Shown here piece after piece: positions 1 to 64,000 of a DNA stretch of 64,000 nt (position 1 is the stretch's first letter; each line of letters opens with the position of its first letter). Made by a program: the position numbers and the translations under genes. The stretch is from Takakia lepidozioides (lineage: Eukaryota; Plantae; Bryophyta). The stretch is from contig CM060731.1 of NCBI GenBank assembly GCA_030704615.1, positions 81,902,001 to 81,966,000 on the forward strand, given 5' to 3'. The notes beneath the pieces were generated by a model. It was not told the DNA's origin, searched no databases, and saw only the letters and a list, made by a program, of their open reading frames with translations.

Positions 1-2
1 AC

Positions 3-1030
3 TGCCTGTACCGTCTCGGTAGGCAGAGAGACCATTGAGGGAAGTGTACTCCGCACTCTGCGTTGCTCAGCCAGAGCCAAGCTGATAATCCAGGTCAAGC
101 AATTGAGATCCATTGCTTGCCCCAACACTTGACGACGTGATGCCTCAGAAAGAGACGACACCGCCGTGGTACCAGTGGTAAAACCCATTGCCCGCTCACG
201 CTCGTCAGCATTAGGCTCCACTAACTGCTGCAACTGAGCATCCCACAGGAGGCCAGGTCCACTATCCCGGAAAGCATGCGATCCTGGGAAGCTGAGCAGT
301 GTAGGTAATGCTGCTCGTGGTTGACCCACCTTGTTGACCACTGCCAAAGGCGAACGGTCATCGTGTCTCACACGCTGAGACTGCCTCCCTGTGTCCAGAA
401 TGTTATCCACTGTGAGATGTGCTGGCCGCTGCACCCCATCAAATGCACGCTTGAGCAGTGCGGGTGGCATCAAGTTAGTCCACCATAGCCGTGGACGATG
501 AGCCCGTGACCCCACTGTAGCTGCATCTAGCAACACTGCTGACCCAAGCCACGACCGGACTTGATGCACACTGGCCATCACCCTGGCCCGAGAATCGCCC
601 ATCAGTGGCACATTCTCCAAGATGTATGCTGGAGATACAGCTTGATGAAGCTGCAAGTGGCGCAAAACCCGCACCATCTCCCAAAACAGACCCGACCTCG
701 AGTCTCGCAATCCATTGCCATGCCCGGCTGATGAATGCCCTTGGCAGGGCCAACCTGCCACTACCAGATCAATGGAGCCAACCCGCTCCAAATCCTGCGC
801 CCCCAGCAACGAAATGTCTGCTGGCAAGGCCTGCTGATATCCACGAATTGCAGACACCGACAACAACTCAGGGTACCGCTGCACCAACTGAGCAACATGG
901 CGAAGTGAAACGCGTCGTGCAGTCTCATCCCTCTCCACATACAGGTAACGCCGAACTCGTACACCTGCTGTAACACAGCAGCCAATCCGGTGCTGATCCC
1001 GCCAAACAAGTCCAGAAGACAAATGCCTTC
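3..1030 (-). CDS. DNMT3-like C5 cytosine DNA methyltransferase domain of the retroelement polyprotein (1-nt frameshift at ~968)
   Basis: Manual translation: motif I CLLDLFGGISTG, then after the shift II RYLYVERD, III ADI, IV IDLVVAGWPCQGHS (PCQ 741-749), VI YILENVP (ENV 609-617), VIII LDAATVGSRAHRPRLWWTNL, IX ERERAMGF, X SRRQVLGQAMDLNCL. No stop codon from ~967 to position 3. Confidence 0.95.
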
Positions 1031-2610
1031 ATCCGGATACTGCCACACAATAGGTGTGGTGTCCAATGGAGACAATTGAGGTGGTCCTGGTGCAATCCCC
1101 ACACTCTCCTCCTCTCCTGACGGTACAAAAGCCTCCACCCAGGCTTGTTGCACCCGTCGATCAGCATCCCGCTGCAAATCCTTGCTCGTGCCCCACAATG
1201 GAGTCTGAGCAACCATGGTAGGCAACTCCGCCATACCATACATGTCATCCTGCTCTCCCGGAGGTGGTACATCCTCTGAATGAGCATTGCCCTCAAGCAA
1301 CTCTCTAGGCCAACTCACTGCCGCTGTGAATGCTGCTAGTGTCGGCATCTTGCCTCGCTGGGCAACCGCAACTCCTCCTATGAACGTCACAGGGAGCTGC
1401 ACACGCCGGCCCTCCCCTGACTGCCATGCAGGCCTATAGGAAGCTGACTCCTCCCAAAAATCCAGGGTGAAGCCCATGGGGTACAACACTGCCCCACCAA
1501 CCAGGACATCGTATGAGACTGCGTCTGTCACAATGGCCTTGGCTCGCATCACTGAGCCATCTGTAGGGTGATCCGGCCGTAGTCTGATAGCCAACTCACG
1601 CCGTGTCATGCCCCGAGCCTGCTCCGATCCTCCCAGAGACGTCTGTATCTGGAAAGGACAAGGCTCCATATCCGCCTCCGTGAGGCCCAAGCCTGCAATA
1701 GCAGCTCTGCCCAGCATCAATGGCTGAGCTCCCGAGTCCAACAAGACCCGCAGTGGCCGGTACCTCTTGCCTGCCGGTCCACTCAAACAGAAAATGCCAT
1801 CCTGGTTGTCTAACATGACAACTCCAGGTGTCACCATGGCGCGCTCAATGGCTGGCCTAGCTGGCAGCTCCATCAACCTGGCAGCTGCAGCTTGCCATGG
1901 CGCCGCCGTGGCAGTCTTGACCCTCAAATCCTAGTCCGCAGAAGATGAAGTAACCTCCCCACTCTCACAGAGTGTAGCTGCCAGCCTGAACACCTCAGCT
2001 GGTTTTACCCCCGGCGTCGCAATCATGGTAGCCGAGAACAATGGAGCCTGGCACACAGATGTGGCCGCTCCTAGCAGCACACTAGCTGCCGTAGCCTTGG
2101 CAACACTAGGTAGTGGTGCTACCCGTGTAGCTCTCCCCAATGGCATAGTAACCTCCGCCTCGGTAACAGTCGGGCGAGAACTAGGTGCCATGGATGGCGT
2201 CGACACTGTCTCCGCCAATGTGAATGACTGAGGAAGCCTAGCCTGACGGCTTGCCTCCCCACGCTGTGGATCCAACTCCACCTCTGCACCTCGTGGCTCA
2301 GGAACTCGTGCTGCTCCTCGAGTCACGGCTGCAGCAGACTCCACCTGCACTAGTGGTAGTGCTGCTCCACACATGAATCCCATGCCTCCCATATCTCCTC
2401 CCTCAGGAGCAGGAGGTGGACCATCCGGCCTTAGAGCCGGTACCACCTGAGCTGTAGCCATGGCAGCGAGCCTCTGCTCTAGCTGCTGAAGCCGGTTGGC
2501 CATGCCTTGGTCAACACCCTGACCTCCGCGTCCTTGGCCACGTTGAGCTTGCCCTTGGCCTGCACCTCGTGGCTGGCCACCTCGTCCTCTCTGGGCTGCT
2601 CCACCTCGCC
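1031..2610 (-). CDS. Gag-pol linker and retropepsin-type aspartic protease (in-frame TAG at 1931-1933)
   Basis: RVLLDSGAQPLMLG and YDVLVGGAVL motifs. ORFs 1931..2503 and 761..1927 are in the same frame, separated by a single TAG. Confidence 0.85.
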
Positions 2611-3927
2611 CCGGCCACCATTGTTCCCTTGGAACTGGCCTGGGCGCAACTCAGGATGCAAACCATAACACTGGGCCTCTCCATGCCCGTGCTTGCCACA
2701 ATGCCCACACTGCAACTGTGCAGGCTGTGCATGTGCCGACCCTTTGCCTCCCTCTGGGCAATCCTTCTTGACATGGGGTCCTCCACATGTCCAGCACACC
2801 ACATCCGCCCGTTGTTGGCCAGCAAATGAAGGGAGAGACCCCTGCATCTGAGGTCCTCTCTGCCCTTCCCTGAGCTTCACCTGAGCCCCCTTGTTGCCTT
2901 GAGCACGTTGAGGTAGTGGTTGGCTAGGAGCACCACTACCCCGTGGTGTCTCCTTAGCAAATCCCACCATGACCACTCGTTCCTCCACCATGTTGAGCTC
3001 TATCCGCTCTGCCAGCAAAAACACATTTGCTAAGGTGGGTTGGGCCGCTTGTAGGAGAGTTGCATCCCGCACCCTTCTCCTCAGCTCCTTGTCCAATATC
3101 CCATACCAGAATTGGACTGCCTGAGCTTCCGTAACCCCTTGGGTTACATTTATCAAGCGCCTCATGCGAGTGAAAGCCTCCCTCAAGCTCTCGGTCGGCT
3201 TCCGTTGGAACTCTTGCAAGCTCCGCAACTTCTCTGTCCTCACCCCTTGGTAGTTCCCTCTCAACTCTTCGAAGAACTCCACAACAGGGTTGAAGGCAGG
3301 CACGGGTGCTAGTGCTGGTGCGGTAGTGGCTTGGGTGGACGTCGTAGCTACTGTACCACCAGTCCCACTAGTTCCACTGCTACTTGCTGAAGCTGCCGGT
3401 GCAGCGGCAGGTGTAGCCACTGCCCTCGTGGCTCTAGTGCCCCTAGTGATGGAGACATAGTCGGGTGACCAGTACATCCTCCACTCCTCGATCTCAACCT
3501 CATGCCCCCGCCTGAACTCATGGTAATCATCCATAGGCGGCCCCTCAAGGTGCTGAAACAGCCCTTTCCATGCCATGAACGGCGTAAATAGTTGTGGATT
3601 GCGCATTTGCTGCAAATCACACCAACTATCAAACTCTTGGATAAAATCATCCAACTCGATGGTGCCCACCGCCCCAGAGTACCTTCGTGGCCCCTTGGTA
3701 GCTCCATACATCTCCTCCATTGTGTCCCACAACAATGGCAAAGAAACAACTTGCACCGCCGGTATGAGTCCTCCTGATTCACAATCCGAATCAGAACCTT
3801 CCGTGGAAGACACAGGAGGTGAAGGTGGCCTAAACCGCACACCTCGTCTCGTGTACCCACTAGTATCGCTAGTGCTCGAACCGGCACTGTCCCCAGCAAC
3901 TAGTGGCACCTCCGTGTTGACACTCAA
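2611..3927 (-). CDS. Gag with capsid-like region and two zinc knuckles
   Basis: FQRKPTESLREAFTRM capsid-like motif; CWTCGGPHVKKDC and CGHCGKHGHGEAQC. A 1-nt shift in the G run at ~2610 restores a GRGG-rich linker into the 1931..2503 frame. Confidence 0.85.
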
Positions 3928-4659
3928 CCGGTCATGAACATGTCCCTAACCCCCTCTCCACAAGGTAACCGGGTAGAGAACCTGTTGCGGCTTATGGTTT
4001 GGAATACTAAGTTCCTAACATAGCCTACACCTGTACCTGCATCCACCGCAAGCACTCCTATGGTTGGCTGGTCATCACCTCCAACCTCACCACAGGAGAA
4101 CAATGATGGTCTGGCTGGTCATCACCCCAGCCTCACCATCGACAGCATGCTCTAGGACTGGCCGGTGATCAAATCCGGACCAATCACCTATAAAAACAAG
4201 CGCCCACACAAAACTAGCATGGCGCACAGTCAAGCATGCAGGTATGGAGGGGATCCAAACACAAGAAATCAGAACGACAACTCCCCCACACCAAAAACAA
4301 CTCCACGGTGTTGCTCCTGCAAGGACACCCCAGCCCAAACCCAGACTGACTCTTGCCTCCACCTACGGAAAGGTCTTGGCCTAATGAGAGGGTGGAAACT
4401 ACGAGGAAGAGAAGCTAAAGCAATGCCTAACCCCAGCATGCCCTCATCCCAACACTCTTCCTCTCCTCTCTTCCCTCACTTGCATGACCATGGGAATATC
4501 ATGAAGATACTCCTCAAACCGCCCTCCACGAGCTTCAAAATTCGGCCTTCAAGACCACATGTCAGTCCTTAGGCAGTCCACCAGTGCCTCCACGAGTCAG
4601 CACAGGCCATCCACAGGTCAACACGGGCCACCACAGACCAGCACAGGCCCACACAGCTC

Positions 4660-5667
4660 ACTGGTCACAGCCGTCACAGTCCCACAGGCCACTGGGCACA
4701 GCCTGTCACAGCCCCTCACAGCCCGTCACAGCTCGCCACAGCCTGTCACAGCCCCGCACAGCCCGTCACAGCCCCAAAGGCCTCAGGCACGACTTGTCAC
4801 AGCCCGTCACAGCCCCAAAGGCCACGGGCACAGCCTGTCACAGCCCCTCACAGCCCGTCACAGCCCCACAGGCCACTGGCACAGCCTGTCACAGCCCCTC
4901 ATAGCCCCAAAGGCCACGGGCACAGCCTGTCACAGCCCCACAGGCCTCAGGCACGGCCTGACACAGCCCCTCACAGCCCGTCACAGCCCCAAAGGCCTCA
5001 GGCACGGCCTGTCATAGCCCCTCACAGCCCATCACAGCCCCCAAGGCCACCGGCGTAGCCCGTCACAGGCCCTCACAGCCCGTCACGACCCCGAAGGCCA
5101 CCGGCACAGGCCCTCACAGCCCGTCACAGCCCCGAAGGCCACCGGCGTAGCCCGGCACAGCCCATCACAGCCCTAAAGGCCACCGCGCAGCCCGACACAC
5201 AGCCCCAAAGGCCTCAGGCACGGCCTGACACAGCCCCTCACAGCCCGTCACAGCCCCAAAGCCTCAGGCACGGCCTGTCACAGCCCCTCACAGCCCGTCA
5301 CAGCCCCAAAGGCCTCAGGCACAGCCTGTCACAGCCCCTCACAGCCCCTCACAGCCCCAAAGGCCTCAGGCACGGCCTGTCACAGCCCCTCACAGCCCGT
5401 CACAGCCTCAAAGGCCTCAGGCACGGCTTGTCACAGCCCCTCACAGCCCATCACAGCCCCAAAGGCCATGGGCACAGCCTGTCACAGCCCCGCACAGCCC
5501 GTCACAGCCCCACAGGCCACTGGGCACAGCCCGTCACAGCCCCACAGGCCACTGGGCACAGCCTGTCACAGCCCCTCACAGCCCCAAAGGCCACGGGCAC
5601 AGCCTGTCACAGCCCCTCACAGCCCGTCACAGCCCCATAGGCCTCAGGCACGGCCTGACACAGCCCC
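4660..5667. repeat. ~1-kb minisatellite of TCACAGCCC(G/C) 10-mers in ~45-50-bp higher-order units
   Basis: Direct reading: reiterated cacagcctgtcacagcccctcacagcccgtcacagccccaaaggcc. Confidence 0.95.
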
Positions 5668-6129
5668 ATCCATGGCCGCTCTGGCAGTTTAGCCATTTCT
5701 CCAAGGGGTTTAGCCACGCCAAGCTAGGGTTTGTGTCTCTTGGACCCTAGGTTTCTTTCCACCGAGCTATGGCGGCTCTCAGGAAATCAGCAAGGTATTC
5801 TTGCTCTTTCGGCTCCCACACACCACCATAGTAGCCCTAAGCCATGAGGTGGTTGCCACAAACCAAGCCTTCTTTCTCACTTAGCCTCCCCAAACACGCC
5901 ACTAAACTCAATGGCAAACAACCAAGCCCTGTTGGTTCCCAGCCCTTGTGAGCACTCATTCAAGCACTCTCCTTGGCCATAGCATCTGTCTTAGAGCCTA
6001 TTCCAGCCCCCTACACCTGCTGCTTCAAGAGTTGCGCTCCCTTCAAGCTTGAAGTTGAAACCCCAACTCACATAGGCCCTACAAGTGCTTTTCTTTCACT
6101 CCAAGTGGAAACCAGCCCTAGACCTTCCG

Positions 6130-6520
6130 TTCTAGCTCTCTAAAGCTTGAAAACAAGAGCCTCAATGGGCTGAAGGCATGCTCCACACATGCCCCACTCT
6201 CACCATAAGAGAATCAGCTCATTTGCTTCATTTCTTGCACCCACAAACCTGAAAATACAAGCTTCAGCAGGCTGAAAGCATGCTCCACATGCCCTACAGG
6301 GAAACCAGCCCCTTCCTTCCTTTCTTGCACTCCCACACCTGAAAGTGCAAGCCTTCACCAGGCTAATAGCATGCTCCACACATGCATTGCCCTCACATAA
6401 GAGAAGTCAGCCCTTCCCTCTTCCTTGCTTGCCCTCCAAGCTTGAAGATGGAAGCTTCAATGAGCTGAATACATGCTCCACACATGCAACCTCTTCACAC
6501 AAGAGATATCAGCCCCCTAT
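6130..6520. repeat. Four diverged ~100-bp tandem units
   Basis: catgctccaca(ca)tgc core recurs at ~6177, 6278, 6369 and 6471, each preceded by a ctgaa/ctaa motif. Confidence 0.7.
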
Positions 6521-7579
6521 CTTGGCTCCTTGGCTCCTTGATGCTCTCTAAGATAAGACTAAGCACTCCACAACCTTTGCCAAGCTCCTAAAACCCTAAG
6601 GCTTACATTTCCAGCCACAAGACACTTCTCTTGTGGTGCAAGAGCTCTTCTTCCAAGCTCTAAAACCCTAGGTGCACATTCCATGGCCTTGCCGCACCTC
6701 TTAGCTCCTGTTCCAGCCCTGCTCTTACCATGACAAGAGCCCTCTCAATGCTGAAGCTCGAGATTGAAACCCAATCTCACCATACTCCACAAAGTGCACT
6801 GATTTGCCCCAAGCCAAATCAGCCCTTTCGCTTGGTCTTGCAATCCTTCACACAATGAAAGCTCGCATTCCCAAGTCCAGTTCTCAGCTTTGCCACCAAA
6901 GCCACTATAACCTGCTCTTGACTGGTCCTCTTCCCAATCGTGCTTGCTCATGCATGTACACAATCTGAAACCATCAAGGTGCTCTGGAATTACCTGCAGC
7001 ATGGTGCTTTCATCTCTGAAGCTGAAGATCGAATGCCAAGGTCTACCACCTCGTAACCCACATCGCCTCCGCTTCTAACAACCAAGAGCTCCACGGTGCT
7101 CCTTGCATAACAACTTGGTTTCTCTCATTCTCAAGAAAAAACCAAGTGCTACAACTAACTCGTATCTGGCACTCACAGATACGAGCTGATCTTTCTCGAG
7201 TGATAAAGAAGAAGAATACAAGCACGAGCTCACAAATCTGAAGCATAAACTCATGCATATATAACCTCATCACTCAAATACAAGTCAAGCCAAGTGCACC
7301 CCACACCATGTGGTATCCACACTACGGCGCCATAGCTAGGCGCGGTGAGTCTCAACTCGAGAAAGATGAGCCTTCCGCGCTTGCCGTGAAGATAACCACT
7401 CCAGGGCCTAAATCTGCCTTGACCCCTGGATTGACACTTGGGCCAATCCCAAATGTCAATATGTAAAAGCTAGCTATTTCCTAGCTAGTTTCACACTAGT
7501 GATAAAATAACTTGACAACTGCTTGAACATGGAAAACCAACTGTGGATAGTTGGGCCATGTTATAGGCACTATTCTTAG

Positions 7580-8095
7580 CCCATTATCTACCTGGCGATT
7601 ATGCACACAAAATGAAGGTGGAGATGTTCAGGTTGAAACAGGAAACCTTGAGCGTTGGCAAATTCAAGACTAGATTTGAAACCCACTCTAGTTACTTTCC
7701 TTCCCTCAGTAAAGAAGACAGAGTTGATTTCTTTCTTTGTGGATGGCCTAAATGATTTCCCTAAGTACAAAGTCAAGGCCCACAATCCTTGAGCAGAAGG
7801 TGAGGCCTATCGCTTGTCATGCAACTATGAAAGCGAGATCAGGGCACAAAAAATTGTGACTCATGCTCGTAAATTCAAGCCAGCTACAGCACCGTCTTGG
7901 CAGCCAGCCAAGAAAAAGGGGGACTGGAAAAGGTCCAAGCCATATAATAAGAGGTAGGATGGCTCGAATATTCGAAGGCCATCGTAGGTAGAACCCCTGC
8001 ACGGCTCATTGTCAAAGAACAGGAAGAGCATGAGCGCAAAGGATTGTGCTTTACCTGTCATGAATGGGGTCATAGATCTAAGGAATGTCCCTAAA
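7580..8095 (+). pseudogene. Degraded Ty3/gypsy gag remnant
   Basis: KGLCFTCHEWGHRSKECP zinc knuckle at ~8040-8090; upstream ELISFFVDGL capsid-like piece. Confidence 0.65.
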
Positions 8096-8761
8096 ATCCA
8101 CTTTGGCAGGCAACCACAGTGACAGTTCAGAAAACAACAGGAACACCGTATTCGCTAAAAGTGTACTTTGAAAAGATCATTTTTTTTCCCAATTCCCCTA
8201 GAGGTTGTCGTCAACTACAATGTATAATTAACATCATTGGTGAAATTGTGCACCACCTTATGTATATGTACATATAACTTTCATATAATCATAGATATTA
8301 TAAAAATCAGTCTATTTTGATGCAACATATATAGCTTATGATAATATGTGATCCCCAAAATTTAATGTCTTCTAATGGAATATGCTTTGAACCCGCAACC
8401 ATTTGTGAGAGGATATGCACTTTTAGTGTTGGATTAAATATCAATATATGAAGCGAGACGTTTGTTTTGTTTTGTTTTGTTTTGTTTTGATTTGAGATGT
8501 CCCCAACCGCGAGGACCTAGCCCTAGTGCTTGGTACCATTGGAAAGCCCTCGACGAGGAGGGGTGCACGGGCTTGGTCTCATGATTTTTGGACCTGCAGT
8601 GTGGGAGATGTCGAATTTCAAGTACTTTGGGTCGCTGGAAATTCCCAAAGAATAGCAAAATGGGCTCTCCTTGGACAATGGTTGGAGCCTCGAGAGGAGA
8701 AATATCAAGGGAGAGGTCTCCGGTTCAAATCTGGTCGTAGGCTCTGTGGAAAAAAAATGCA

Positions 8762-13493: not shown

Positions 13494-13699
13494 GTCAGAT
13501 TGTGGGCACCTCTTCCTTGACAAATTAAATTGTCTCCCTGTCTGTAATGCGTAGGCCCGTCTCCATTCCACGATTATTTCCCATTCCAGCTTTGATCAAC
13601 CCTGCATGGAGGCCCTTGCCCTGTTCGAAGGCTATTGGGGTAGTACATGTGTTCACTTGTCATTTGCTCAGCCATTCATGTACACATTTGGCAACCAAC

Positions 13700-14655
13700 A
13701 AGGTCTCGTCAAAGCTGGAATTGTACCAGTTGTCATTCTGAACACTGCCCTGGTGGACATGTATACCAAATGTAGGTGCATTAAGGATGCAAAGGGAGTT
13801 TTCAACACTATGGCTGAACGAGATGTGGTGTCATGGAACGCGATGCTTGTAGGGTATGCACAACAGGGACGTGGTATGGAGGCTTTGAAGACCTATGATC
13901 AAATGATGGGGGAAGGGGTGAATGCGATGATTGCAGGATTAACACAGCAAGGGCATGGTGAGGAGTTTCAAACTTTTTCAGCAAATGCAATGAGAAGGTA
14001 TGGAGCCAAACGAAATCACCTTCATGAGCATCAAAGTGGGAACTGCCCTTGTCAGCATGTATTGCAAATGCGGGAGTGTGGTGGATGCTCAACAAGTGTT
14101 CATCAAAATGTCCAAACGAAATGTGGTCTCATGGAATGCAATGATTGCGGGACTTCCTCAACATGGTCATGATGATGAGGCAATTGAACGCTTTGGGCAA
14201 ATGCAACAAGAGGGCATGAAACCAAACATGAGCATGTGTGTAAGCATTCTAAATGCATGTGGCAGTCCAATAGCCCTAGAACATGGAAAGCTCCATGCAG
14301 GCATTATCAAATCTGGATTTGATTCAGATGTCCAAGTGGGGACTACCCTTGTCAGCATGTATTGCAAGTGTGCCAGTGTGCTCAGTGCACGCCAATTTTT
14401 GACAAGCTGCATGTGCGAGATGTGGTCTCATGGAATGCTATAATTGCAGGATTAGCTCGGCATGGTCAAGATGAGGAGGCTTTTGAACTCTTTGGGCATG
14501 CCAAATGTGGGAGCATTGAGGATGCAGAGGGAGTGTTCAACAATATGGTTGAACGAGATTTGGTGTCCTGGAACGCCATGCTTGCAGGATATGCACAGCA
14601 GGGGAGCGGGATGGAGGCCTTGGAGACCTATGAGCAAATGATGGGGGAAGGGTGT
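13700..14655 (+). pseudogene. PLS-class PPR motif fragments
   Basis: NTALVDMYTKC, RDVVSWNAML and VGTALVSMYCKCGS motifs with frameshifts. Confidence 0.9.
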
Positions 14656-14749
14656 GGCTTTTTCTTAATGTACGATCTGAAGAAGTTTGTCCATCCTGCA
14701 AAGGTGGGCTCTTGGCTCCTGTCAGTACCATGATTTGGTATTCTTCTTG

Positions 14750-17700
14750 ATGTTTCTGTGGATCAATAGCTACAAGAAACCTGCATGGGCAGATGTTAAC
14801 TAAAGGCTGCAGCTGCAGCGGCACAGTTGATAAAATCAGGCACCTCAACCATGACCACAACTTCTGAAAGAGGATTAAGAGAGGATCCACAATGCCTCTT
14901 CTGGCACTTCTGGGCATGTGAAGATGCTTTGTGCGACAGGTAGACTGACAGAGGCTCTACAGACTTTAAACCAAGGAGGCATTTCAGCAGATTCAAATAC
15001 ATATGTCTGTTTCTTGCTTAAGTGCATCAGGATGGAAGGTCTGGAAGCTGGAAAGTAGATGCACACTCACATTATCCAAAGTGGATTCACGCCAAATATT
15101 TTTCTACTCAACACCCTTGTCGACATGCATGTTAAGTGCGGGAGCATCATGGATGCTCACCAAGTGTTCAACAGAATGCCTCAACGATCTTTGATCACGT
15201 GGAACACGATGCTTGCAGGGTATGCACAGCAGGGGCGTGGTATGGAGGCCTTGGAGACCTATGATCAAATGGGGGAAGGGGTGAAGCCCGACCACATCAC
15301 ATTTGTGTGCCTTTGCAATGCATGTGCAAGCCTGGCAGCTCTGGAAAAGGGTGAAGATCAGGTCCATGGCGACATTGTTAGAGCTGCAATTGTACCAAGT
15401 GTCATTCTGAACAATACCCTCGTGGACATGTATGAAGGGAGTTTTCGACAGTATGGCTGAATGAGAGTGGTGTCGTGGAGGGTGATGATTGCAGGATATG
15501 CACAGCAAGGGGGCGGGATGGAGGCTTCGGAGACCTATGAGATATTGATGTGCGAAGAGGTGAAGCCCCACCGCATAACGTTTGTTTGCATTTGCAATGC
15601 GTGTGCAAGCCTGGCAGCCCTGGAAAGGTGCAAAGAGGTCCATGGTGACATCGTCAAAGCTGGATTTGTACCAGATGTCATCCTGAACACTGCCCTGCTG
15701 GACATGTATGTCAAATGTGAGTGCATCGAGGATGCAAAGGGAGTGTTCGACAGTATGGCTGAACGAAATGTGGTGTCGTGGAGTGTGATGATTGCAGGAT
15801 ATGCACTGCAAGGGGTGGGATGGAGGCTTTGGAGACCTATGAGCAATTGATGTGCGAAGGGGTGAAGCCCGACAACATCACATTTGTTTGTGTTTGCAAT
15901 GCGTGTGCAAACCTGGGAGCTCTGGAAAAGGGGAAAGAGGTCGATGGTGACATCGTCAAAGCTGGATTTGTACCAAATGTCATCCTGAACACTGCCTTGG
16001 TGGACATGTATGCCAAATGTGGGTGCATTAAGGATGCGAAGGGAGTTTTCAACACTATGGCTGAACAAGATGTGGTGTCGTGGAACGCGATGCTTGCAGG
16101 GTATGCACACCAGGGGCGTGGGTCGATGGAGGCTTTGGAGACCTATGAGCAAATGATTGGGGAATTGTACCCGATGTCATTCTGAACACTGCCCTGCTGG
16201 ACATGTATGTCAAATGTGAGTGCATCGAGGATGCAAAGGGAGTGTTCGACAGTATGGCTGAATGAGATATGGTGTCGTGGAGTGCGATGATTGCAGGATA
16301 TGCACAGCAAGGATGCGGGATGGAGGCTTTGGAGACCTATGAGCAATTGATGTGCAAAGGGGTGAAGCCCAACCGCAACACATTTGTTTGTGTTTGCAAT
16401 GCGTGTGCAAGCCTAGGAGCTCTGGAAAAGGGGAAAGAGGTCCATGGTGACATCGTCAAAGCTGGATTTGTACCAGATGTCATCCTGAACACTGCCCTGG
16501 TGGACATGTATGCCAAATGTGGGTGCATGAAGGATGCGAAGGGAGTTTTCAAATGGCTGAACAAGATGTGGTGTCGTGGAACGCGATGCTTGCAGGGTAT
16601 ACACAGCAGGGGCGTGGGATGGAGGCTTTGGAGACCTATGAGCAAATGATGGGGAAGGGTGAAGCCCGACCACATCACGTTTGTGTGCATTGCAATGCGT
16701 GTGCAAGCCTGGCAGCCCTGGAAAAGGGCAAAGAGGTGCATGGTTGCATCGCCAAAGCTGGAACTGTACCAGGTGTGATCAAACTGCCCTGGTGGACTGT
16801 ATGCCAAATGTGGGAGCATTGAGGATGCAGAGGGAGTGTTCAACAATATGGCTGAACGAGATTTGTTGTCGTGGAACGTGATGCTTGCAGTATATGCACA
16901 GCAGGGCGTGGGATGGAGGACTTGGAGACCTATGAGCAAATGATGGGGGAAGGGGTGAAGCGCGACCACATCATGTTTGTGTGCGTTTGCAGTGCGTGTG
17001 AAAGCCTGGCAGCCCTGGAAAAGGGCAAAGAGGTGCATGGTTGCATCGCCAAAGCTAGAATTGTACAGATGTGATTCTGAACAATACCCTCGTGGACATG
17101 TATGCCAAATGTGGGAGCATTGAGGATGCGGAGGGAGTGTTCAAGAATATGGCTGAACGAGATTTGGTGTCATGGAACGCCATGCTTGCAGGGTATGCAC
17201 AGCAGGGGCGCAGGATGGAGGCCTTGGATCAGACCTATGAGCAAATGATGGGGGAAGGGGTGAAATGCAACCACATCACGTTTGTGAGCGTTTGCAATGC
17301 TTGTGCAAGCCTGGCAGCCCTGGAAAAAGGGCAAAGAGGTCCATGATGGGGGAAGGGGGGAAGCCCGACCGCATCACGTTTGTGTGCATTTGTAATGCGT
17401 GTGCAAGCCACATTCATTTGTGTTCTCAATGTTGGTGCCAGCATGGTGGCCCTGGAGAAGGGCAAAGACATCATCCATGCTGACATTATCAAAGCTGGAA
17501 TTTCGTCATACATTAATTGGGAAACTGCCCTTGTTAACATGTATGCCAAATATGGGAGTGTAAGGGAGGCCTGTCTAGTGTTCAACACATATGGTGGCAG
17601 GATATACCAAGCATGGTTGTGGTAGGAATGCCTTTCGAGACATATGATCAACTGATACAGCAAGGGGTGATGCCCTATCAGGTCACAGTTGTTTGCATTC

Positions 17701-19531
17701 TCAAGGCTCGTGCGAGACTGGCAGCCCTGGAAAACGGCAAAGAGGTCCATGCTGACATATGAAAGCTGGAGTCGTACCAAATCTGATTTTGAACAATAGC
17801 CTTGTTGACATGTATGCGAAATGCGGGAGCATGAAGGTTGCAAAGAGAGTATTTGACAACATGGCTGAACGGGATGTGGTGTCGTGGAATGCGATGATCA
17901 CAGGATATACCCAGCATGGGTGTGGGATGGAGGCTTTGGGGACCTATGAGCAAAAGATGCGGAAGCATTCAACAGAATGCCTCAACAATCTTGATCACGT
18001 GGAATATAATGTTGGCAGGATTTACCAAGCATGGGTGTGGGATGGAGGCTTTGGGGACCTATGAGCAAAAGATGCGGAAGCATTCAACAGAATGCCTCAA
18101 CAATCTTGATCACGTGGAATATAATGTTGGCAGGATTTACCAAGCATGGGTGTGGTAGGAATGCTTTTGAGACCTATGAGCAGATTCTGCGCAAAGGGGT
18201 GAAGCCCAACCACATCAGATTTGTTTGTGTTTGCAATGCGTGTGCAAGCCTGGCAGCCCTGGAAAAGGGCAAAGAGGTGCATGGTTGCATCGCCAAAGCT
18301 GGAATTGTACCTGATGTGATTCTGAACAATACCCTCGTAGACATGTATGCCGAATGTGGGAGCATTGAGGATGTGGAGGGAGTGTTCAACAATATGGCTG
18401 AACGAGATTTGTTGTCATGGAACGCCATGCTTGTAGGATATGCACAGTAGGGGTGCGGGATGGAGGCCTGGGGAGGGGTGAAGCCCGACCACATCACGTT
18501 TGTGTGCGTTTGCAATGCGTGTGCAAGCCTGCAGCCCTGGAAAAGGGCAAAGAGGTTCATGGTGACATCATCAAAGCTGGAATTGTACCAAATGTCATTC
18601 TGGACATTGCCCTGGTTCACTTGTATGCGAAATGTGAGTGCAATGAGGATGCAAAGGGAGTATTTGACAATATGGCTGAATGAAATGTGGTGTCGTGGAA
18701 TGCGATGATCGCAAGATATGCCCAGCATGGTTGTCATAGGGAGGTCCTGCAACTATTTGAAGGAATGCAAAAGAAAGGCTTGAAGCCAGACAGTATCACC
18801 TTTATATGTGTTCTCTCTACCTGCAGCCACACTGACCTACTGAATGAAGAAGACGCTACTTCGATTCCTGAGTGAAGATCATGGTATCAATCTGACAGTA
18901 AAGCACTTTGGCTGCATGGTGGACCTTCTTGGACGTGCGGGACAACTGGATGAGGCAGTGGACCTGATTAATAAAATGCCAATCAATCCAGATGTTGTGG
19001 TGTGGAAGGCCTTGCTTGGTGCCTGCAGAATCCATGGCAATGTGGAGATGGCTGAATGTGTAGCAACATTTATCCTCAAGTGAGATGAACAGGATGCCGC
19101 GACTTATGTGGTGCTAAATCAAACATCTATGCTGCAGCTGGCAGGTGGGATGATACTGCAAAGGTGAGAAGAATGATGAAGGTCAGAGGGTTAGAAAGGA
19201 GCCAGATGACAAGTTGCATCCCAGAATTAAGAAAATCCATGCTGAGCTGAGAAGATGTCTGGGCAGTTGAAGGAGGCGGGGTATGTGCCTGACACACGCT
19301 TTTATTGCATGATGTGGAGGAAAGGAATTTTCTCTTAGCCACCACAGTGAGAAGCTGGCCATTGGTTTTGGGCTGATCAGCACGACTCATCAAGAATCTT
19401 CGAGTGTGTGGAGACTGCCACACCTCCACCAAATTCATCTCAAAGATTGTTGGCCGAGCAATTGTTGTATGGGACGCTACTACTTCCACCACTTTGAAGA
19501 TGGGATTTGTTCTTGTGGTGATTACTGGTGA
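14750..19531 (+). pseudogene. PLS-E-DYW PPR (organellar C-to-U editing factor) pseudogene 1
   Basis: N-terminal leader, many P-L-S triplets, E domain (FGCMVDLLGRAG..VVWKALLGACRIHGN), HSEKLA at 19343, [10 protein letters not shown] and CSCGDYW* ending at 19531. Numerous frameshifts and stops; PG box deleted. Confidence 0.92.
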
Positions 19532-22239: not shown

Positions 22240-25200
22240 ACAGATTACCTATGATTCCCTATGGAATGATAGGTACAAGAAACCTGCATGGGTAGATGGT
22301 CAACTGGAAGCCGCAGCAGCAGCGGCACAATTGATAAATTCAGGCGCTGCTAATGAAGGCACCTTCTTCAACACATTTCACCATGTTTTCCCTCTTATCA
22401 GAATCGGCCCTAAATTTTCATGTTGAATTCTGCAAGTTAGCTGGTTGAGTGAACCTTTGATAGTTTGGAGTGACTTTGACATGATACTGCCAATGTGACA
22501 ACAGGGAAGTATCCAGAAACAGGTAATACAATCGAGGCAAAAAGGTGAATGCTTGTTGGAGAGAGTAGCAGATGCAATTGAGCATAGGAACTAATGTGAT
22601 AAGTTGAGTTGGGTGTTTCCTAGAACAGATCTAGGCTGTCATTGTCAGCTGATAGCAGGCATGGATAGCTGAAGGAGGCAGGGATAGTGTGTGGGTGGAC
22701 AGATTCATTCAAGAGGGACGGACTTCAAGCTCCAGATGACCTATGATTCCATATGGATCAATAGCTACAATAAACCTGCATGGGTAGATGGTCAACTAAA
22801 GGCAGCAGCTGCAGCGGCACAGTTCATAGAATCAGGCACCTAAACCATGACCACAGCTTGTGAAAGAGGATCAAGAGAGGGAGTCCACAATGCCTCTTCT
22901 GGCACTTCTGGGTATGTGAAGATGCTTTGAGTGGCAGGCAGACTGACAGAGGCTCTACAGACTCTAAACCAAGGAGGCATTTCGGCAGATTCAGATACGT
23001 ATGTCTGTCTCTTGCTTAAGTGCATCAAGATGGAAGGTCTGGAAGCTGGAAAGCAGGTGCACACTCACATTATCCAAAGTGGATTCACGCCAAATGTTTT
23101 TCTACTCAACACCCTTGTCAAAACATGTATGTTAACTGCGGGAGCATCATGGATGCTCACCAAGTGTTCAACAAAATGCCTCAACAATCTTTGATCACGT
23201 GGAATATAATGTTGGCAGGATTTACCAAGCATGGGTGTGGGTAGGATTAATGCTTTGGAGACCTATGAGCAAATGTTGCGCGAAGGGGTGAAGCCCAACC
23301 ACATCACGTTTGTGTGCATTTGCAAATTCGTATGCAAGCCTGGCAGCTCTGGAAAAGGGCAAAGAGGTCCATGGCGACATTGTCAGAGCTGTAATTGTAC
23401 CAAATGTCATTATGAACAATACCCTCGTGGACATGTATGAAGGGAGTGTTCGACAGTATGGCTGAACGAGATATGGTGTCGTGGAGTGCGATGATTGCAG
23501 GATATGCACAGCAAGGGCGCGGGAGCTGAAGGAGCAGGGAACACTGAACACTGCTCTGGTGGACATGTATGCCAAATGAGGAGCATTGAGGATGTGGTGT
23601 TCAACTATGGTGTGGTGTCGTGGAACACGATGCTTGCAGGGTATGCACATCAGAGGCGCGGGATGGAGGCTTTGGAGACCTCTGAGCAAATGATGGGGGA
23701 AGGGGTGAAGCCCGACCACATCACGTTTGTGTGTGTTTGCAGTGCGTGTGCAAGCAGGTGGCAGCCCTGGAAAAAGGCAAAGAGGTGCATGGTTGCATCG
23801 CCAAAGCTGGAATTGTACCAGATGTGATTATGGACAATAGCCAGTAGGCAGACTGACAGAGGCTCTACAGACTTTAAACCCAAGGAGGCATTTCAGCAGA
23901 TTGAGATGCGTATGTCTGTCTCTTGCTTAAGTGCATCAAGATGGAAGTCTGGAAGCTGGAAAGCAGGTGCACACACATTATCCTAAGTTGCTCAATTTGT
24001 ATGGTGTTCAACTGCTGCGGGCATTAACTTCGTAGTTTTGTAGCGACTGTTCCCACTGATAGTCAGGTGCCCGAGGCTCTGCATTCTAGTGAAAATATAC
24101 ATCTAATGTGCCCCATTTTTCAAATATGAAGATTTCCAGAGTTCCCATGGGGTTAAGGCTTCATGAAGGCACTGCTAATGAAGGCACCTTCTTCAACACA
24201 TTTCGCCCTGTTTTTCCCTCTAATCAGAATCGGCCTTAAATTTCCATGTTGAATTCTGCGAGTTAGCTGGTTGAGTGAATCTAGTTTGCAGTGACTTTGA
24301 CATGATACTGCCAATGTGACAACAGGAAACTATCCAAAAACAGGTAACAGAGATGAGAGAAGCTGTGGAATGAATACTTCTCTGACCCCAGTCAATGGTG
24401 GGACAACCAAAGTAAAAAGTGAATGCCTGTCAGATTACCAGATGTGATTCTGAACACTGCCCTGGTGGAAATGTATGTCAAATGTGAGTGCATCGAGGAT
24501 GCAAAGGGAGTGTTCGACAGTATGGCTGAACGAAATGTGGTGTCGTGGAGTGTGATGATTGCAGGATATGCACTGCAAGGGGTGGGATGGAGGCTTTGGA
24601 GACCTACGAGCAAATGATGTGCGAAGGGGTGAAGCCCAACCACATAACATTTTTGTTTTTGCTTGCAATGCGTGTGCAAGCCTGGGAGCTCTGGAAAAGG
24701 GGAAAGATGTCCATGGTGACATCGTCAAAGCTGGAATTGTATGCACGGATGGAGGCTTTGGAGACCTATGAGCAAATGATGTGCGAAGGGGTGAAGCCCA
24801 ACCCCATAACGTTTGTTTTTGTTTGCAATGCGTGTGCAAGCCTGGGAGCTCTGGAAAAGGGGAAAGAGGTCCATGGTGACATCGTCACAGCTGGAATTGT
24901 ACCAGATGTCATCCTGAACACTACCCTGGTGGACATGTGTGCACGGGATGGAGGCTGGGAGACCTATGAGCAAATGATGTGCGAAGGGGTGAAGCCCAAC
25001 CCCATAACGTTTGTTTTTGTTTGCAATGCGTGTGCAAGCCTGGGAGCTCTGGAAAAGGGGAAAGAGGTCCATGGTGACATCGTCAAAGCTGGAATTGTAA
25101 CAGATGTCATCCTCAACACTGCCCTGGTAGACATGTATGCAAAATGTGCGTGCATTGAGGCTGGACTTGAGGGGGATGTCCATGTGGGGACTGCCCTTGT

Positions 25201-26215
25201 CATCATGTATTACAGGTGTGAGAGTTTGATGGATGCCACCCGAGTATTTGACACAATGCCCAAGCGAGATGGGGTCTCATGGACTGCTATGATTGCAGGA
25301 TCTACTCAGCATGGTCATGGTGAGGAGGCTTTCAAACTCTTTCAACAAATGCAAAGAGAGGGTGTGAAGCATCCCTGGAACAGGGCAAGTGGGTCCATGC
25401 CTACATTATCAGATCTGGGTGTGAATCAGATGTCTATGTCAGGAGTGCCCTCATTGATATGTATACCAAATGTGGGAGTGTAGATGCATGGGAGATGTTT
25501 GACAAAATTCTTAAACCAGATGTGCTCTCATGTACTGCGATGATTATAGGATATGCTCAGCATGGGCATGATCACGAGGCTCTCCAACTGTTTGAACTGA
25601 TGCAATTGAAAGGTGTGAAGCCAAATGAGGGCACATTTATTGGTGTTCTCTCTGCATGCAGCCATTTGGGCCTTGTAGATGAAGGTGGTAACCAGCTGCT
25701 TCAGTGTGGGGGGGGGGGGGGGGGGGGCCTTGCTTGGTGCCTCCAGAATCTTATGGAAGTGTGGAGTTAGCAGAGTGTACTGCAGAATGTATTTTCAAGG
25801 TGAAATCACAAGATGCTGCAGTGTATGTGCTGCTTTCAAACATTTATGCTGCAGCTGGTAGGTGGGCTGATGTAGCAAAAGTGAGAAAAGCAATGGACGC
25901 CAGAGGTGAAAAAGGAACCAGGCCACACTTGGATTGAGGTGGAAAACAGGGTGTATACATCTGCCGTTGGAGATAGATCTCACCCACGAGCAGAGGAGAT
26001 CTATGCTAGATTGACTTGGCAGATTAAGGAGGCCATTGCTTTTGGGCTCATTAGCACACCCCCTGGGACCCTATCCGCATCATTAAAAACCTACGTGTAT
26101 GTAGGGACTGCCACACTGCCACCAAGTTGATATCCAAAATTGTTGCACGAGAATTGCAAGGGATGCCATCTGCCTTCATCACTTCAACAATGGGGTGTGT
26201 TCTTGTGGGGATGGA
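22240..26215 (+). pseudogene. PLS-E-E+-DYW PPR pseudogene 2 (mosaic; HxE motif deleted)
   Basis: Leader in frame with GRLTEALQTL..; PLS motifs; KKEPGHTWIEV PG box; KEA joined directly to IAFGLIS; KNLRVCRDCH. Leader restarts at ~23845 and ~24170. Confidence 0.9.
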
Positions 26216-26546
26216 GCCCTTGATGAACTTGCATGAATATTGTCAAAAGCTAGCCTTAACCCACCAAAATCCAATCCCATGGATGCTTGAAAGTTCATAC
26301 AGTGAATGTAAGGGTATTTGGGTATGTTGTTATTGATTGATGCGGCTTGTGAAAATTGAATGTTGAAATGCAGATCCGCCATTTTTCTTCCAGAAAAAAA
26401 CAAAACACGGGATCTCTTCATGTACCACCATGGGGATGACCCAGCTCCTTTTTGTGAAAAATTGAACATAGTTCTCAGAATTCGTTGCTAGTAATGCGGA
26501 GCAACGCGAAGCCCTAGTGCAGGTTACTGCCTTTCTTCTCTCTAAG

Positions 26547-26799: not shown

Positions 26800-27388
26800 A
26801 ATTAATGAACTGGCATTGGTTGTTGATATATATTTCTGCATCTTATAAGGGTTGTTTGTGACAGGATTATCTTTGGTGGCTTCATGTTTTGAATCCTGGA
26901 TGTGCTATGCTGCATTCCCATCAGACCAAGTAACCGCCTAGCATCAGGAAATGAACTGGCATTGGTTGTTGATATATATTTTTGCATCTTATAAGGGTTG
27001 TTTGTGACAGCATTATCTTTGGTGGCTTCATGTTTTGAAGCCTGGATGTGCTATGTTGCATTCCCATCAGACCAAGTAACCGCCTAGCATCAGGAATTAA
27101 TGAACTGGCATTGGTTGTTGATATATATTTTTGCATCTTATAAGGGTTGTTTGTGACAGCATTATCTTTGGTGGCTTCATGTTTTGAAGCCTGGATGTGC
27201 TATGTTGCATTCCCATCAGACCAAGTAACCGCCTAGCATCAGGAATTAATGAACTGGCATTGGTTGTTGATATATATTTTTGCATCTTATAAGGGTTGTT
27301 TGTGACAGCATTATCTTTGGTGGCTTCATGTTTTGAACCCTGGAGGTGCTATGTTGCATTTTCCCATTAGACCAAGTAACCGCCTAGA
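26800..27388. repeat. ~149-bp tandem repeat, 4 copies
   Basis: aatgaactggcattggttgttg recurs at spacings of 146, 149 and 149 bp; copies are nearly identical. Confidence 0.95.
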
Positions 27389-28122
27389 CTACCTGCAGAT
27401 CATAATGAAAAGATCAGGTAAGCTCTACCATCGTTTATCATGATTACCCCTCAAGGTATGCCGCGTGCTTTGCCATGATGGCATATGCGGTTTCTTTTTG
27501 AAGTGGTGTGCCTCCCTGAAAGAGACCAAGTGGTTCCTGGACTTACCTTTCACAGGAACCCCTCACGATACTTGGCAGAAACTTGTTTACGAATGCGATG
27601 GTATCCTTGGCCCTGGTATTGTCAGAGTCGAGAAGCTCAAAGCTTGATGGAAAACCTGTTTGCTGTTTTTTTACCCTCGCAAGACTGGTTACACAACACT
27701 GATTGCTGTTTGCTTGACTTACACGGATTGACTTTGTACAGAAGAGATGCTTACAGTTCTGGTTTCTGATAGCAAGAAAAATTAACGACTATCTCTACAA
27801 CTAATTCTAACTGCACAGTACCGGGGAACACTCCTGGTCCACCCAGCCACCACACCGTGCCTTACTCTCTCTGTACATTATCTCCTCAATTCCAGACTTG
27901 CCCAAGGATCTACCGCACAGCCTTCTTCGCCCCCGTCCCTGGTTCTCCTTCTTCACATCCTCAGTAGCTGCCGAAACTTCAGCGGTTGCCTTATGCTCTT
28001 GCGAATTTGTTCACAGTTCCAGTCCGAGCTCCGTTGGCACCTAACAAGCTGTATGATTCTTCTCAGCTGCAGTTTCAAGAGGACTTGCTTTTCTCTTACA
28101 GTGTACTATCTCTTGCAATCAG

Positions 28123-28594
28123 GTGTCAGTTTGCAAGAGGGGGTTGCGAATTGATGTGTAATGGCACAAGTGGAAAGCAACTCAACGCGTGGATCACCAT
28201 ATAGGACACATTCTACCAACGCCTGGATCACATGGCTGAAGATAAAATCAAGTATCGTGGCAAAATTCTTCCTCACCCGCCAACCTGTAAAGAATCGGAA
28301 CAGCCTTGGAGGGGTTAAAATCTGGGGAGATGGAGCGAGATTGCTTGCTTGGGCACGGAGCTGCAGCTACCCTGCGAGAACGCTACTTTCTTCTGAGCGA
28401 TCCATACAAGATGAACGTATGTTCCAATTGCAGGCGGCCAGCCACCATGAATCTGAACGCGCACACCAAGCTGCTGTTTTTGCAAATGTGGCAAGCACAT
28501 TGTGCAAATCCAAATTCCTTATGCCTGCAAGTTCCTTTGGCAGGAGCTCTTCAGCATGGGCATCTGCGTTTACGTGGATACCGAGCTCTGCTGA
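28123..28594 (+). pseudogene. C-terminal exon fragment of RNA polymerase second-largest subunit, Pol IV/V (NRPD2/NRPE2)-like
   Basis: FYQRLDHMAEDKIKYRG, LTRQPV..GGVK-GEMERDCLLGHGA, IPYACKFLWQELFSMGI; several frameshifts. Confidence 0.75.
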
Positions 28595-44126: not shown

Positions 44127-44151
44127 AAAGTTTGTTCCTTAGTTAGTTAAG

Positions 44152-45210
44152 ATGGAAGACACATTTGCGAAAATGGTTGCCACATTGCAGAGTCTTCAGC
44201 TCCAGATGCAAGAACTCCGTGCCTCTACTGCCCAGCTACAAGCTGATCAGTCTCAAGATCTTGGCAACGCTCTCAACGATTTGCAACAACAAATTTCAGA
44301 GTTGAAGGAATTGAACAATGGATCTTCAACCTTACGAGTCCCTACTACAACAAATCCTACTGCAACGGTTCCTCCAAATCTTCAACAGATTACAAGGGAA
44401 CCAAAGGTCAGCATGCCCGATAAATTTGATGGTACGAGATCAAGATTTCGCGGTTTTGTTCAACAAGTACGATTGTTCTTACGATTATATCTACAACGCT
44501 ACCCTGATGAAGGTATTCAAGTGGGATTCGTGGGCACCCTTCTATTAGGCACTGCCCTATCTTGGTTTGCACAGCTATTAGAGAAAAAATCGCATTTACT
44601 ATACAATTTTGAAGCATTCATGTCCGAGTTCACTACAACGTTTAGAGAGAATGATAGAGAGAGAGTTGCAGAGACCAAAGATACGAAATCTTTGACAATG
44701 AGCACTCATGCTTTCGTTTATGCTGCCGAATATCGACAACTTGCGTGCGACCTCGACTGGAATGAGAAGAGCCTCATTAGTCAGTTTCGATGTGGCCTAA
44801 AAGAGGATGTAAAAGATTTGTTGCTGACAATGCCAAACGTGAGTACACTGAACGAATTCATCACCCAAGTCATTGCATGCGATAATCGTTTGTTCGAAAG
44901 ACGTCAAGAGAAGCGATCTGGATGGTCGACGAGTCACCATGCCGCTGCTACTACGGCACCAAATACAACGCTCCATCAGATATCCGGTAATGATCCTATG
45001 CAGATTGATGTTGTCCGATTCAAGCCATTGACGCCACAAGAAAAACAAAGATGGCGCTCGAATGGATTATGCCTTTATTGCGGAAAAGATGATCACATAG
45101 CATTAAACTGCCATAACAAGAGAAGATTCAAAGCTCGGGACATAACTCAAGTGTTCGATACGAGGAGGTCAGAAAACGAAGATGTCCAGCCGCATGGTCA
45201 GGACATTTCG
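44152..45210 (+). CDS. Gag of the chromovirus
   Basis: [20 protein letters not shown] and [16 protein letters not shown] motifs. Confidence 0.9.
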
Positions 45211-45219
45211 CACAAGGTC

Positions 45220-53077: not shown

Positions 53078-53964
53078 GCTCAAGCATTACTACGATGAAG
53101 GGAGATTAGTGTTGTATATACAATTTGTGTGAGAAGCATGGCCTTTGGACTTCCCAAAAGATGAAGCCAAGCTTTTTGCCAAGCTTTACTCCAAGGTCTA
53201 CTTGACAACAAGTCCCTGATACAAGTAAGCTGCCAGACACTTCTTGGTCCGCAAAGCTGAACACCTCTGTCAAAGATGAGGAGTCCCCGAATTGTAAGAA
53301 GGAAAGATCTTGAAGATGCACTAGGGGTGGCCTAAGTAGAGAGTGAAGTATCCATTAGATTTGCCTGTCATGGCTTTGTGGCCATGGACTTGACAAGTTT
53401 GGTCGATAGAGCTCAAAAGCATGAAAAGGAGGAGGGGATGACCAGTAGGGGTGCCATTAGTCAATGGTCGAAGGTTTGTTCTGAGACTGAACCAATAAAG
53501 GTGTTGCTGACTTTTCAGATTTCCTTTGCAAGTATTGAGATAAGGACTTTATACCAATCTTATAGAGAAAGAAGGATTTTATTTGTCCTTCCAAGCCTTC
53601 CAAGGAAGTGCTGCTTTGTTTCCAGGTGGGCTTTCTGTTGCTAGCCCCACATGCATTTCTAGCTAACACTCACTGAGGAGGTATATTCCTAAGATGCCTT
53701 TCGAATATTCTTCAGCAAAACGAAAATTGAGAAACTAAAAATTTTGTGAAACTATTGAACTGCTCACATAGGCCCTCACAGCAACACTTAAGAAATAAGT
53801 AACCCCTATACATGATAAACATGTTACCCTATAGGTGTGGGATTTGCTCACGCTATGCTCACCTGATACTAGGCCCTTTCCATGATAGACTTGAGAAAAG
53901 GGCGCTGAGACTCCAAAAGACCCTAAAAGTTGTCATGTCCCATGGATAATTTATCGAGACGAAG

Positions 53965-54280
53965 CTCTCATTCCCCGAAACTACTACTTAATTTTAATTT
54001 CTCAATGCGAAATTAAAACTCTCACCCCCGAAACAACCATTTAATTTTCATTTCTCAATGCGAAATTAAAACTCTCACCCCCAAAACAACCACTTAATTT
54101 TCATTTCTCAATGTGAAATAAAACTCTCACTCTCAAAACTACCACTTAATTTTAATTCTCAATGCGAGATTAAGACTCTCACTCCTGAGACTACCACTTA
54201 ATTTTAATTTCTCAATGCGAAATTAAAACTCTCACTCCCGAAACTACCACTTAATTTTAATTTTTCAATGCGAAATTGAA
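53965..54280. repeat. ~59-bp tandem repeat, about 5 copies
   Basis: ctctcac..ccgaaactaccacttaattttaatttctcaatgcgaaattaaaa reiterated. Confidence 0.92.
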
Positions 54281-63862: not shown

Positions 63863-64000
63863 CTGGAACACAAACAAAGGAAACCTCATATCATCGACCC
63901 ACCTCAACAATCTTCGCATACTCAACCGGAAGCTGCAAACAAAGGAAAGCAGAGCTGATGATCGACCGACCTCAACATGGGCACAATGAGAACATCTGGC

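Follow-up and report, generated by a model that had tools for sequence, protein, structure and literature searches.

The window analyzed here, a 64,000-nucleotide stretch of Takakia lepidozioides contig CM060731.1 (positions 81,902,001 to 81,966,000), carries part of a Ty3/gypsy retrotransposon that occurs in its moss host in many copies; the minus strand at 3-3945 holds the 5' half of one such copy, now dead. This element encodes a DNMT3-like cytosine methyltransferase (DNMT) and is of the KnitGypsy-Dnmt3 type, described in Klebsormidium nitens in the available text of de Mendoza et al. 2018 (PMC5890265). What is new is a land-plant branch of the known gypsy-DNMT3 elements, in which a junction with a stop codon that is probably read through puts the enzyme on the Gag side.

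Against P0001, an intact Marchantia protein of 1278 residues, the copy aligns as three colinear pieces on the minus strand, with identities of 57% (3720-2608), 47% (2515-968) and 72% (986-3). The pieces 2515-968 and 986-3 lie in different frames, which places a frame break near 968, and the frame at 3..1028 (minus strand) is open for 342 codons, up to the window edge. The parts of the element are as follows.

3..986, minus strand: remaining DNMT3-like C5 cytosine methyltransferase domain (PF00145) with motifs IV, VI, VIII, IX and X, open to the window edge.
968..1030, minus strand: start of the methyltransferase domain by P0001 alignment and motifs; motif I (LFGGISTG) starts at 1009 and is followed by frame break 2 near 968.
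1394..1830, minus strand: aspartic protease, by its motif LLDSG at 1744 and a PF13650 match (E=0.019) under the Pfam cut-off.
1931..2515, minus strand: linker from gag to protease, ending in an in-frame stop at 1931-1933, by frame reading and P0001 alignment.
2515..2608, minus strand: frame break 1, between gag and linker, a frame change relative to P0001 that is absent from many other copies.
2608..3720, minus strand: gag, a capsid-like region and two zinc knuckles (2796, with shortened spacing, and 2709), aligned at 57% identity to P0001 residues 1-373; ATG at 3720 in a frame free of stops from 3945; its PF03732 match (E=0.0024) is under the Pfam cut-off.
3946..4588, minus strand: upstream non-coding region common to other copies and covered by contigs of all four runs compared, likely the 5' leader.
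4589..5668, no strand assigned: GC-rich tandem array upstream of gag (Tandem Repeats Finder), unit of ~10 nucleotides with higher-order periods of 41 and 51 nucleotides.
5669..6500, minus strand: further repeated DNA upstream, with many contigs still covering 6500.

The initial annotation, made from the letters alone, had joined the protease and methyltransferase frames by restoring one base near 968. The P0001 alignment bears out that break, yet it is one of three, together with the frame break near 2608 and the stop at 1931-1933. We compared contigs of four runs (X2, X5, X6 and X8) with window positions 1-6500. At frame break 1, 48 contigs of X2 depart from the window, as do 36 at frame break 2, in both cases together with contigs of X5, X6 and X8; since contigs of all four runs differ at both places, the breaks are lesions of the window copy or its subfamily. 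Loose contig ends at 1931-1935 in X2, X5 and X6 show the window copy departing from other copies at its stop as well. The copy is therefore dead, through two frame breaks and one stop that other copies lack. Contigs of X2, X5 and X6 extend over the tandem array, which probably belongs to the element. On the other side, the window edge cuts the frame 40 residues past the start of motif X, while the six closest proteins measured for the first open reading frame (ORF1) end 70-113 residues past it, so that the ORF1 stop itself falls outside the window. Reverse transcriptase (RT), RNase H (RH), integrase and the 3' repeats are beyond the window edge too.

In the frame 3..1028 the PF00145 match reaches E=3.7e-13 and 50.1 bits, against a cut-off of 22. 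Motif I lies in the protease frame, i.e. before the break near 968, and the next frame holds GWPCQ (755), ENV (617), HRPRLWW (500), ERERAMG (203) and LGQAMD (125) in unpermuted order. The best solved-structure match of the window piece is DNMT3A (E=3.5e-8), and a profile of eight family domains has DNMT3A/B/C on top (E 1.8e-17), the next methyltransferase following at 1e-6, HhaI at 8e-6 and DRM2 at 1.5e-4. The fold was modelled on a natural relative, not on the window copy: locus L018 has an intact domain that shares 69% identity with the window piece, and the AlphaFold model of this domain has a confidence score (pLDDT) of 94; its top Foldseek match is again DNMT3A (E 2.8e-19, structural similarity (TM) scores 0.73/0.83). 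By these profile and fold searches, rather than by a tree with host DNMT3, the enzyme is DNMT3-like and nearer DNMT3 than DRM, DNMT2 or bacterial enzymes. A DRM identity was considered and excluded, the motifs not being circularly permuted and DRM2 ranking well below DNMT3A. Profile, fold and motif order thus agree with the initial annotation, which had seen ordered C5-methyltransferase motifs of DNMT3 type with intact PC, ENV and RxR in a frame open to the window edge. Among family proteins, fragments included, PCQ is kept in 53/61, an ENV-type motif in 53/61 and RxR in 51/61, and G92, P94, Q96 and E138 are invariant across 49 aligned sequences.

The missing half of the element was read in relatives, chiefly metagenome loci (the best 80 of 191 matches, numbered with L), where the order is gag-protease-DNMT-RT-RH-integrase-PHD finger. 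Upstream of the DNMT, loci with enough flank have a protease in 48/52 cases and gag in 32/34. RT follows 3' of the DNMT in 51/57 loci with at least 1200 nucleotides of flank, and the 26 loci with at least 3500 nucleotides hold RT (26), RH (26), integrase (24) and PHD finger (19). As an example, L047 has an ORF1 of 1369 residues and an ORF2 of 1047 residues in one frame, with a single stop between them; its ORF2 carries RT, RNase H, H2C2, rve and PHD domains, and finds Ty3 Gag-Pol as best solved-structure match (E 4e-98). RT is absent from 35 of the 38 proteins with gag, protease and DNMT. The initial annotation had proposed a long terminal repeat (LTR) retrotransposon with the DNMT inside gag-pol, and had looked to RT and integrase downstream. 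Both enzymes are present downstream in relatives and the carrier is indeed a retrotransposon, of Ty3/gypsy kind; the position of the DNMT had to be revised, because it ends the gag-protease ORF and a Gag-Pol protein would exist only as the readthrough product.

The ends of the element also differ from that proposal. In Sphagnum-type loci (not in the window copy), we found split repeats in an A-coding-B-A-B layout instead of two ordinary LTRs, complete in L040, L064 and L080 (A ~340 nucleotides, B ~115 nucleotides) and present as B-A-B at the 3' end in L032, L033 and L079. At the three complete loci the target duplications are 4 bp long; the two copies match exactly in L040 and L080 and differ at one position in L064. 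Two identical LTRs with a tRNA primer site were not found in relatives, and by eye there is no TGG primer site after the 5' repeat in L029 and L080. Membership in the DIRS/tyrosine-recombinase class was excluded by the rve integrase and the 4-bp target duplications of relatives. A purine-rich tract stands directly before the first B repeat (L080:14400-15005, L029:14410-14852). TG opens both the A and the B repeat, and CA closes the element.

A PHD finger closes the integrase (PF00628 E=2.6e-10 at L047:8053-8187) and is also seen in L058, L027 and P0054. Its best solved-structure matches are the PHD fingers of CHD4, PHF12, PHF21A and KDM5, several of which are readers of histone H3 unmethylated at lysine 4 (H3K4), and the place it occupies at the integrase end is that of the chromodomain in chromoviruses. 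A second architecture, RT-RH-DNMT-integrase-PHD, was observed in P0035, P0044, P0048, P0084 and others, complete in 33/222 proteins, with a DNMT ~35-44% identical to that of the window; one of these is named from Scenedesmus. Related gypsy elements of green plants that bear a PHD finger hence have the DNMT in one of two places.

The junction between DNMT and RT is conserved. In 31 hand-picked loci translated from DNMT into RT, the frame is kept and a stop occurs at the same place in 31/31. A systematic pass over 57 junction-covering loci, which are not independent (49 belong to one Sphagnum-type family), found the stop at the homologous place in 55 (39 TAG and 16 TAA) and CARYY after the stop site in 56, versus 6 of 281 decay stops inside the DNMT. 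The full CARYYA motif is found in L018 (CAACCA), L047 and L049 (CAGTTA), L058 (CAATCA) and also L060, and in none of the 281 controls. The divergent lineages L018, L047/L049 and L058 differ solely where CARYYA is degenerate, and lack an ATG at this place. In tobacco mosaic virus (TMV), CARYYA after UAG is a readthrough signal working at ~10% in vivo, according to the accessible text of PMC2754532; PMC4132726, as far as available, likewise deals with TMV-type UAG-CARYYA readthrough. The conservation of the site suggests that ORF2 is probably reached by stop readthrough, and with the DNMT on the Gag side of the stop the enzyme would be made at Gag level, RT-integrase only by readthrough. The window's own family very probably has the same 3' half and stop.

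We sought signs of selection in the DNMT by computing ratios of non-synonymous to synonymous substitution rates (dN/dS). These are 0.12 for L047/L049 (dS 0.26), 0.125 for L047/L058 and ~0.09 for the window against Sphagnum-type loci, with dS near saturation; other measurable between-lineage pairs lie at 0.09-0.27, most of them near saturation, and 4/28 pairs are saturated. Judged by these ratios, the family DNMT is under purifying selection, and the neutral evolution across copies that the initial annotation had set against its own reading is not what we observe. Ten within-host variants in the DNMT frame (5 synonymous, 5 non-synonymous) were too few and pre-filtered and were not used, nor were RT pairs with L001, distorted by an internal frame break.

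Copies are numerous and widely spread. The contigs fitting the window amount to 93,529, 504, 1,336 and 3 in the four runs, over several identity bands; they represent many diverged copies without counting them, and the first run possibly comes from the source sample itself. A second organism (B) covers 85-4362 in two contigs, 85-1769 (protease to DNMT) and 1749-4362. The first protein search returned at least 64 matches, 61 of those listed being family members, and a full-library search gave 237 clusters (50% identity) at E<=1e-30. Named hosts among the matches listed are Marchantia polymorpha, Calypogeia fissa, Sphagnum and Klebsormidium nitens, and a second search adds Sphagnum species; most of the 80 loci are Sphagnum-like by sequence, L029 resembling the Sphagnum fallax model P0036 by eye. 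The host of the window copy is a moss, because one exon of the neighbouring glycosyltransferase family 92 (GT92) gene (62830-64000, minus strand) matches a Ceratodon purpureus protein at 95% identity. The embryophyte lineage foreseen in the initial annotation is thus found, and in many copies and species rather than as a single-copy capture. No fern, lycophyte, hornwort or seed plant appears among the named matches listed, most matches being without a name; the matches listed contain no host DNMT3 that could serve as an outgroup, and viral contigs gave one pattern match and no confirmed relative. The Marchantia host gene MpDNMT3b is Mp5g09290 in the available text of 10.1101/2021.02.12.428880, and was not among the matches listed in two protein searches. 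One family member, P0248, is filed at NCBI as a bacterial-bin DNA cytosine methyltransferase on a 2.4-kb contig, and is likely plant or algal transposon DNA.

Trees were built with FastTree, whose support values are given; the DNMT tree is midpoint-rooted, lacks host DNMT3 and leaves out DNMT matches under 270 residues. In it, the window falls in a clade with Marchantia, Calypogeia, Sphagnum-type loci and L018 (1.0), with the L047 group as sister (0.958). Bearing on whether the element spread horizontally or vertically, the window sequence branches with Calypogeia and sequences of no named species, apart from the Sphagnum-type loci, at a support of only 0.675. In the RT tree, the stop-bearing loci and one Marchantia gene model form one clade (0.996). 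K. nitens and the other continuous-ORF proteins with the DNMT before RT are outside the bryophyte clade in both trees. The DNMT tree joins all DNMT-before-RT elements at a support of 0.46 only, and the RT tree places K. nitens with DNMT-after-RH elements (0.987). The RT-RH-DNMT-integrase-PHD elements are a separate DNMT clade of 106 tips (0.83).

Among known systems the closest is KnitGypsy-Dnmt3, which shares Ty3/gypsy domains, an intronless unpermuted Dnmt3-like domain under purifying selection, and the DIRS-like A-coding-B-A-B layout (PMC5890265, domains in the available text, layout in the Fig. 4 legend), seen here in Sphagnum-type loci. The K. nitens protein P0043 has the same protease-DNMT-RT-RH-integrase order and is 46% identical over the DNMT. 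In contrast, the available text of the paper has the K. nitens DNMT in the Pol ORF (PMC5890265), and P0043, a partial gene model, runs from DNMT to RT without a stop, whereas the bryophyte DNMT ends ORF1, ahead of a conserved stop whose context is of readthrough type. The window copy further differs in its moss host, and the bryophyte elements in forming a clade of their own in the DNMT and RT trees and in the PHD finger that ends their integrase; the truncated P0043 did not show such a finger. SymbioDIRS-Dnmt3 of Symbiodinium also has a Dnmt3-type domain, which methylates CG de novo in yeast, and A-coding-B-A-B repeats, but is a DIRS element with a tyrosine recombinase in the available text (PMC5890265), while here we find a DDE integrase, 4-bp duplications and a Ty3-like RT. 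The EpiLTRs of Cymbomonas and Euglena are likewise LTR retrotransposons with a cytosine methyltransferase and a chromatin reader; their DNMT, however, is sister to DNMT4 and comes with DAM and a chromodomain, and they are held distinct from streptophyte Gypsy-DNMT3 (10.64898/2026.05.21.726589, available part). The junction resembles TMV-type UAG-CARYYA in having an in-frame UAG, then CARYYA, with the polymerase downstream, but in the parts available those cases are plant-virus experiments (PMC2754532, PMC4132726), and here we have conservation alone, with CAACCC in the Sphagnum type. Bryophyte host DNMT3 (MpDNMT3b) and DRM share the C5-methyltransferase fold nearest DNMT3A; the family DNMT differs in being intronless, fused to gag-protease and not permuted as DRM is.

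Our literature search, most subscription papers lying outside it, found no description of the bryophyte family or its stop. The supplement files of PMC5890265 that were searched hold no Marchantia or Sphagnum match. In their available parts, Sarre et al. 2025 (PMC12344493) and the 2026 preprint (10.64898/2026.05.21.726589) use 'streptophytes' and do not name land plants, and their supplementary trees may hold bryophytes; Morozov et al. (PMC6338049) state that DNMT retrotransposons are absent from land plants such as tracheophytes. The accessible text of PMC6317226, on the REXdb plant lineages Phygy, Selgy, Tcn1 and OTA, does not mention a methyltransferase domain, and no such element occurs in the available parts of PMC12885004, PMC13468544, PMC11982613 and 10.1101/2021.02.12.428880.

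The best overall explanation, which we favour by a small margin over doubt, is that ORF1 encodes Gag, protease and DNMT ahead of a leaky stop, and that a DNMT present at capsid level likely methylates cDNA in the particle. Each translation of ORF1 would yield Gag-protease-DNMT, and a minority would continue by readthrough into RT-RH-integrase-PHD. The DNMT would be packaged at capsid level, then freed by the element's own protease, and would methylate the new double-stranded cDNA inside the particle, so that new insertions would arrive pre-methylated and host maintenance enzymes would keep the mark. The CG methylation by the related SymbioDIRS-Dnmt3 domains in yeast speaks in favour (PMC5890265, available text). 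Every step beyond the domain order is inferred: release by the protease, catalytic activity and cDNA as the substrate, taken together, have about an even chance, and targeting of integration by the PHD finger may be somewhat less probable than that. More tentative still is the widest version, in which a DNMT3-bearing split-repeat gypsy lineage would run from chlorophytes to mosses and liverworts, and the bryophyte TMV-type leaky stop would pack a de novo DNMT into each particle and mark insertions before PHD-guided integration.

Several observations weigh against this explanation. The stop and the RT are outside the window, and are thus observed in relatives alone. The K. nitens DNMT gave no methylation in yeast, a result its authors call inconclusive (PMC5890265, available text). 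Sibling Sphagnum-type copies have dN/dS values of 0.64-0.91, and 39/46 full-length DNMT matches contain stops (7/46 are stop-free); low ratios between lineages and such stops fit selection during transposition and decay after insertion. CpG depletion shows no consistent trace of self-methylation, at 0.52 versus 0.92 in the other Ty3 element of the window, but 0.52 versus 0.38 in L015. Finally, in 49/57 loci the stop site is followed by CAACCC, which misses the consensus by one base, and then by an ATG that could allow re-initiation, and DNMT and RT are in a single protein in five bryophyte gene models.

Two alternatives, both unlikely, concern where the enzyme works and how ORF2 is made. In the first, element and enzyme are the same, but the target would be chromosomal DNA in the nucleus, be it resident copies, competing elements or host loci, instead of cDNA packaged in the particle. 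Gag-level expression would far exceed the enzyme need of one cDNA, in line with nuclear action, but the fusion would put the enzyme in the particle, where Gag-fused proteins of Ty3/gypsy elements go. The available text of de Mendoza et al. does discuss host-genome methylation by retrotransposon DNMTs, yet K. nitens has such elements and a plant-like methylome (PMC5890265). In the second, splicing or re-initiation would express ORF2 in place of readthrough, which the ATG two codons past the stop (50/57 loci, nearly all of one family) and the five joined gene models would suit. This is hard to reconcile with L018, L047, L049 and L058, without the ATG and yet with full CARYYA, and with a frame kept over the stop in all 31 translated loci. 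The gene-model junctions that were read disagree with each other: P0007 and P0036, read across the junction, and the similar P0052 skip the stop region at differing points, which looks like gene-prediction repair.

Less probable than either is a domain retained in the particle for binding nucleic acid or for its structure, with little or no methyltransferase activity. The silent K. nitens domain in yeast and a position on the Gag side of the stop, typical for structural proteins, would be compatible with such a role, but the catalytic motifs and invariant residues given above are kept, and human DNMT3B failed too in that yeast assay (PMC5890265, available text). A one-off capture of host DNMT3 by the window copy, or an assembly chimera, would suit a broken copy that ends before RT and is nevertheless extremely improbable, given the gag-protease-DNMT order in Marchantia, Calypogeia, Sphagnum and the 80 metagenome loci, the 237 clusters, the second-organism contig that runs from protease to DNMT, and the absence of Mp5g09290 from the family matches listed.

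As for the 5' side, comparison of window positions 3901-8700 with the 80 relative loci gave no match to their terminal repeats, and the 5' end of the window element was not located. A likeness to the Sphagnum-type A repeat at 7239-7304 was rejected, as 12/200 shuffles reached it. A short gag-like fragment of another element, recognized by eye at 7567-7755 (plus strand), may bound the DNMT element's 5' side. Elsewhere the window holds a decayed, unrelated Ty3/gypsy element at 44143-47200 (plus strand) with Ty3 capsid, RNase H and integrase, no DNMT match and a CpG observed/expected ratio of 0.92; degenerate PPR repeat arrays with many frame breaks (13555-18800, 22900-26130 and 48994-49398); DYW-like C-terminal fragments near 25885-26336, by eye; an apparently broken C-terminal fragment of the second-largest RNA polymerase subunit (28291-28600, plus strand; PF04560 E=1e-13); and tandem arrays at 26804-27396 and 53940-54329, with periods of ~149 (4 copies) and 53 nucleotides.

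DNMT-bearing retrotransposons have so far been described for dinoflagellates and one charophyte. The presence of the family in the model Marchantia polymorpha means that genetics and methylome mapping could address why a transposon keeps an enzyme that normally silences it, and the stop predicts an enzyme dosage tied to Gag, not to RT. Many bryophyte gene models called 'DNA methylase' are pieces of these elements and would inflate counts of host DNMTs. On the widest version given above, bryophyte genomes would carry a second, transposon-run pathway of de novo methylation.

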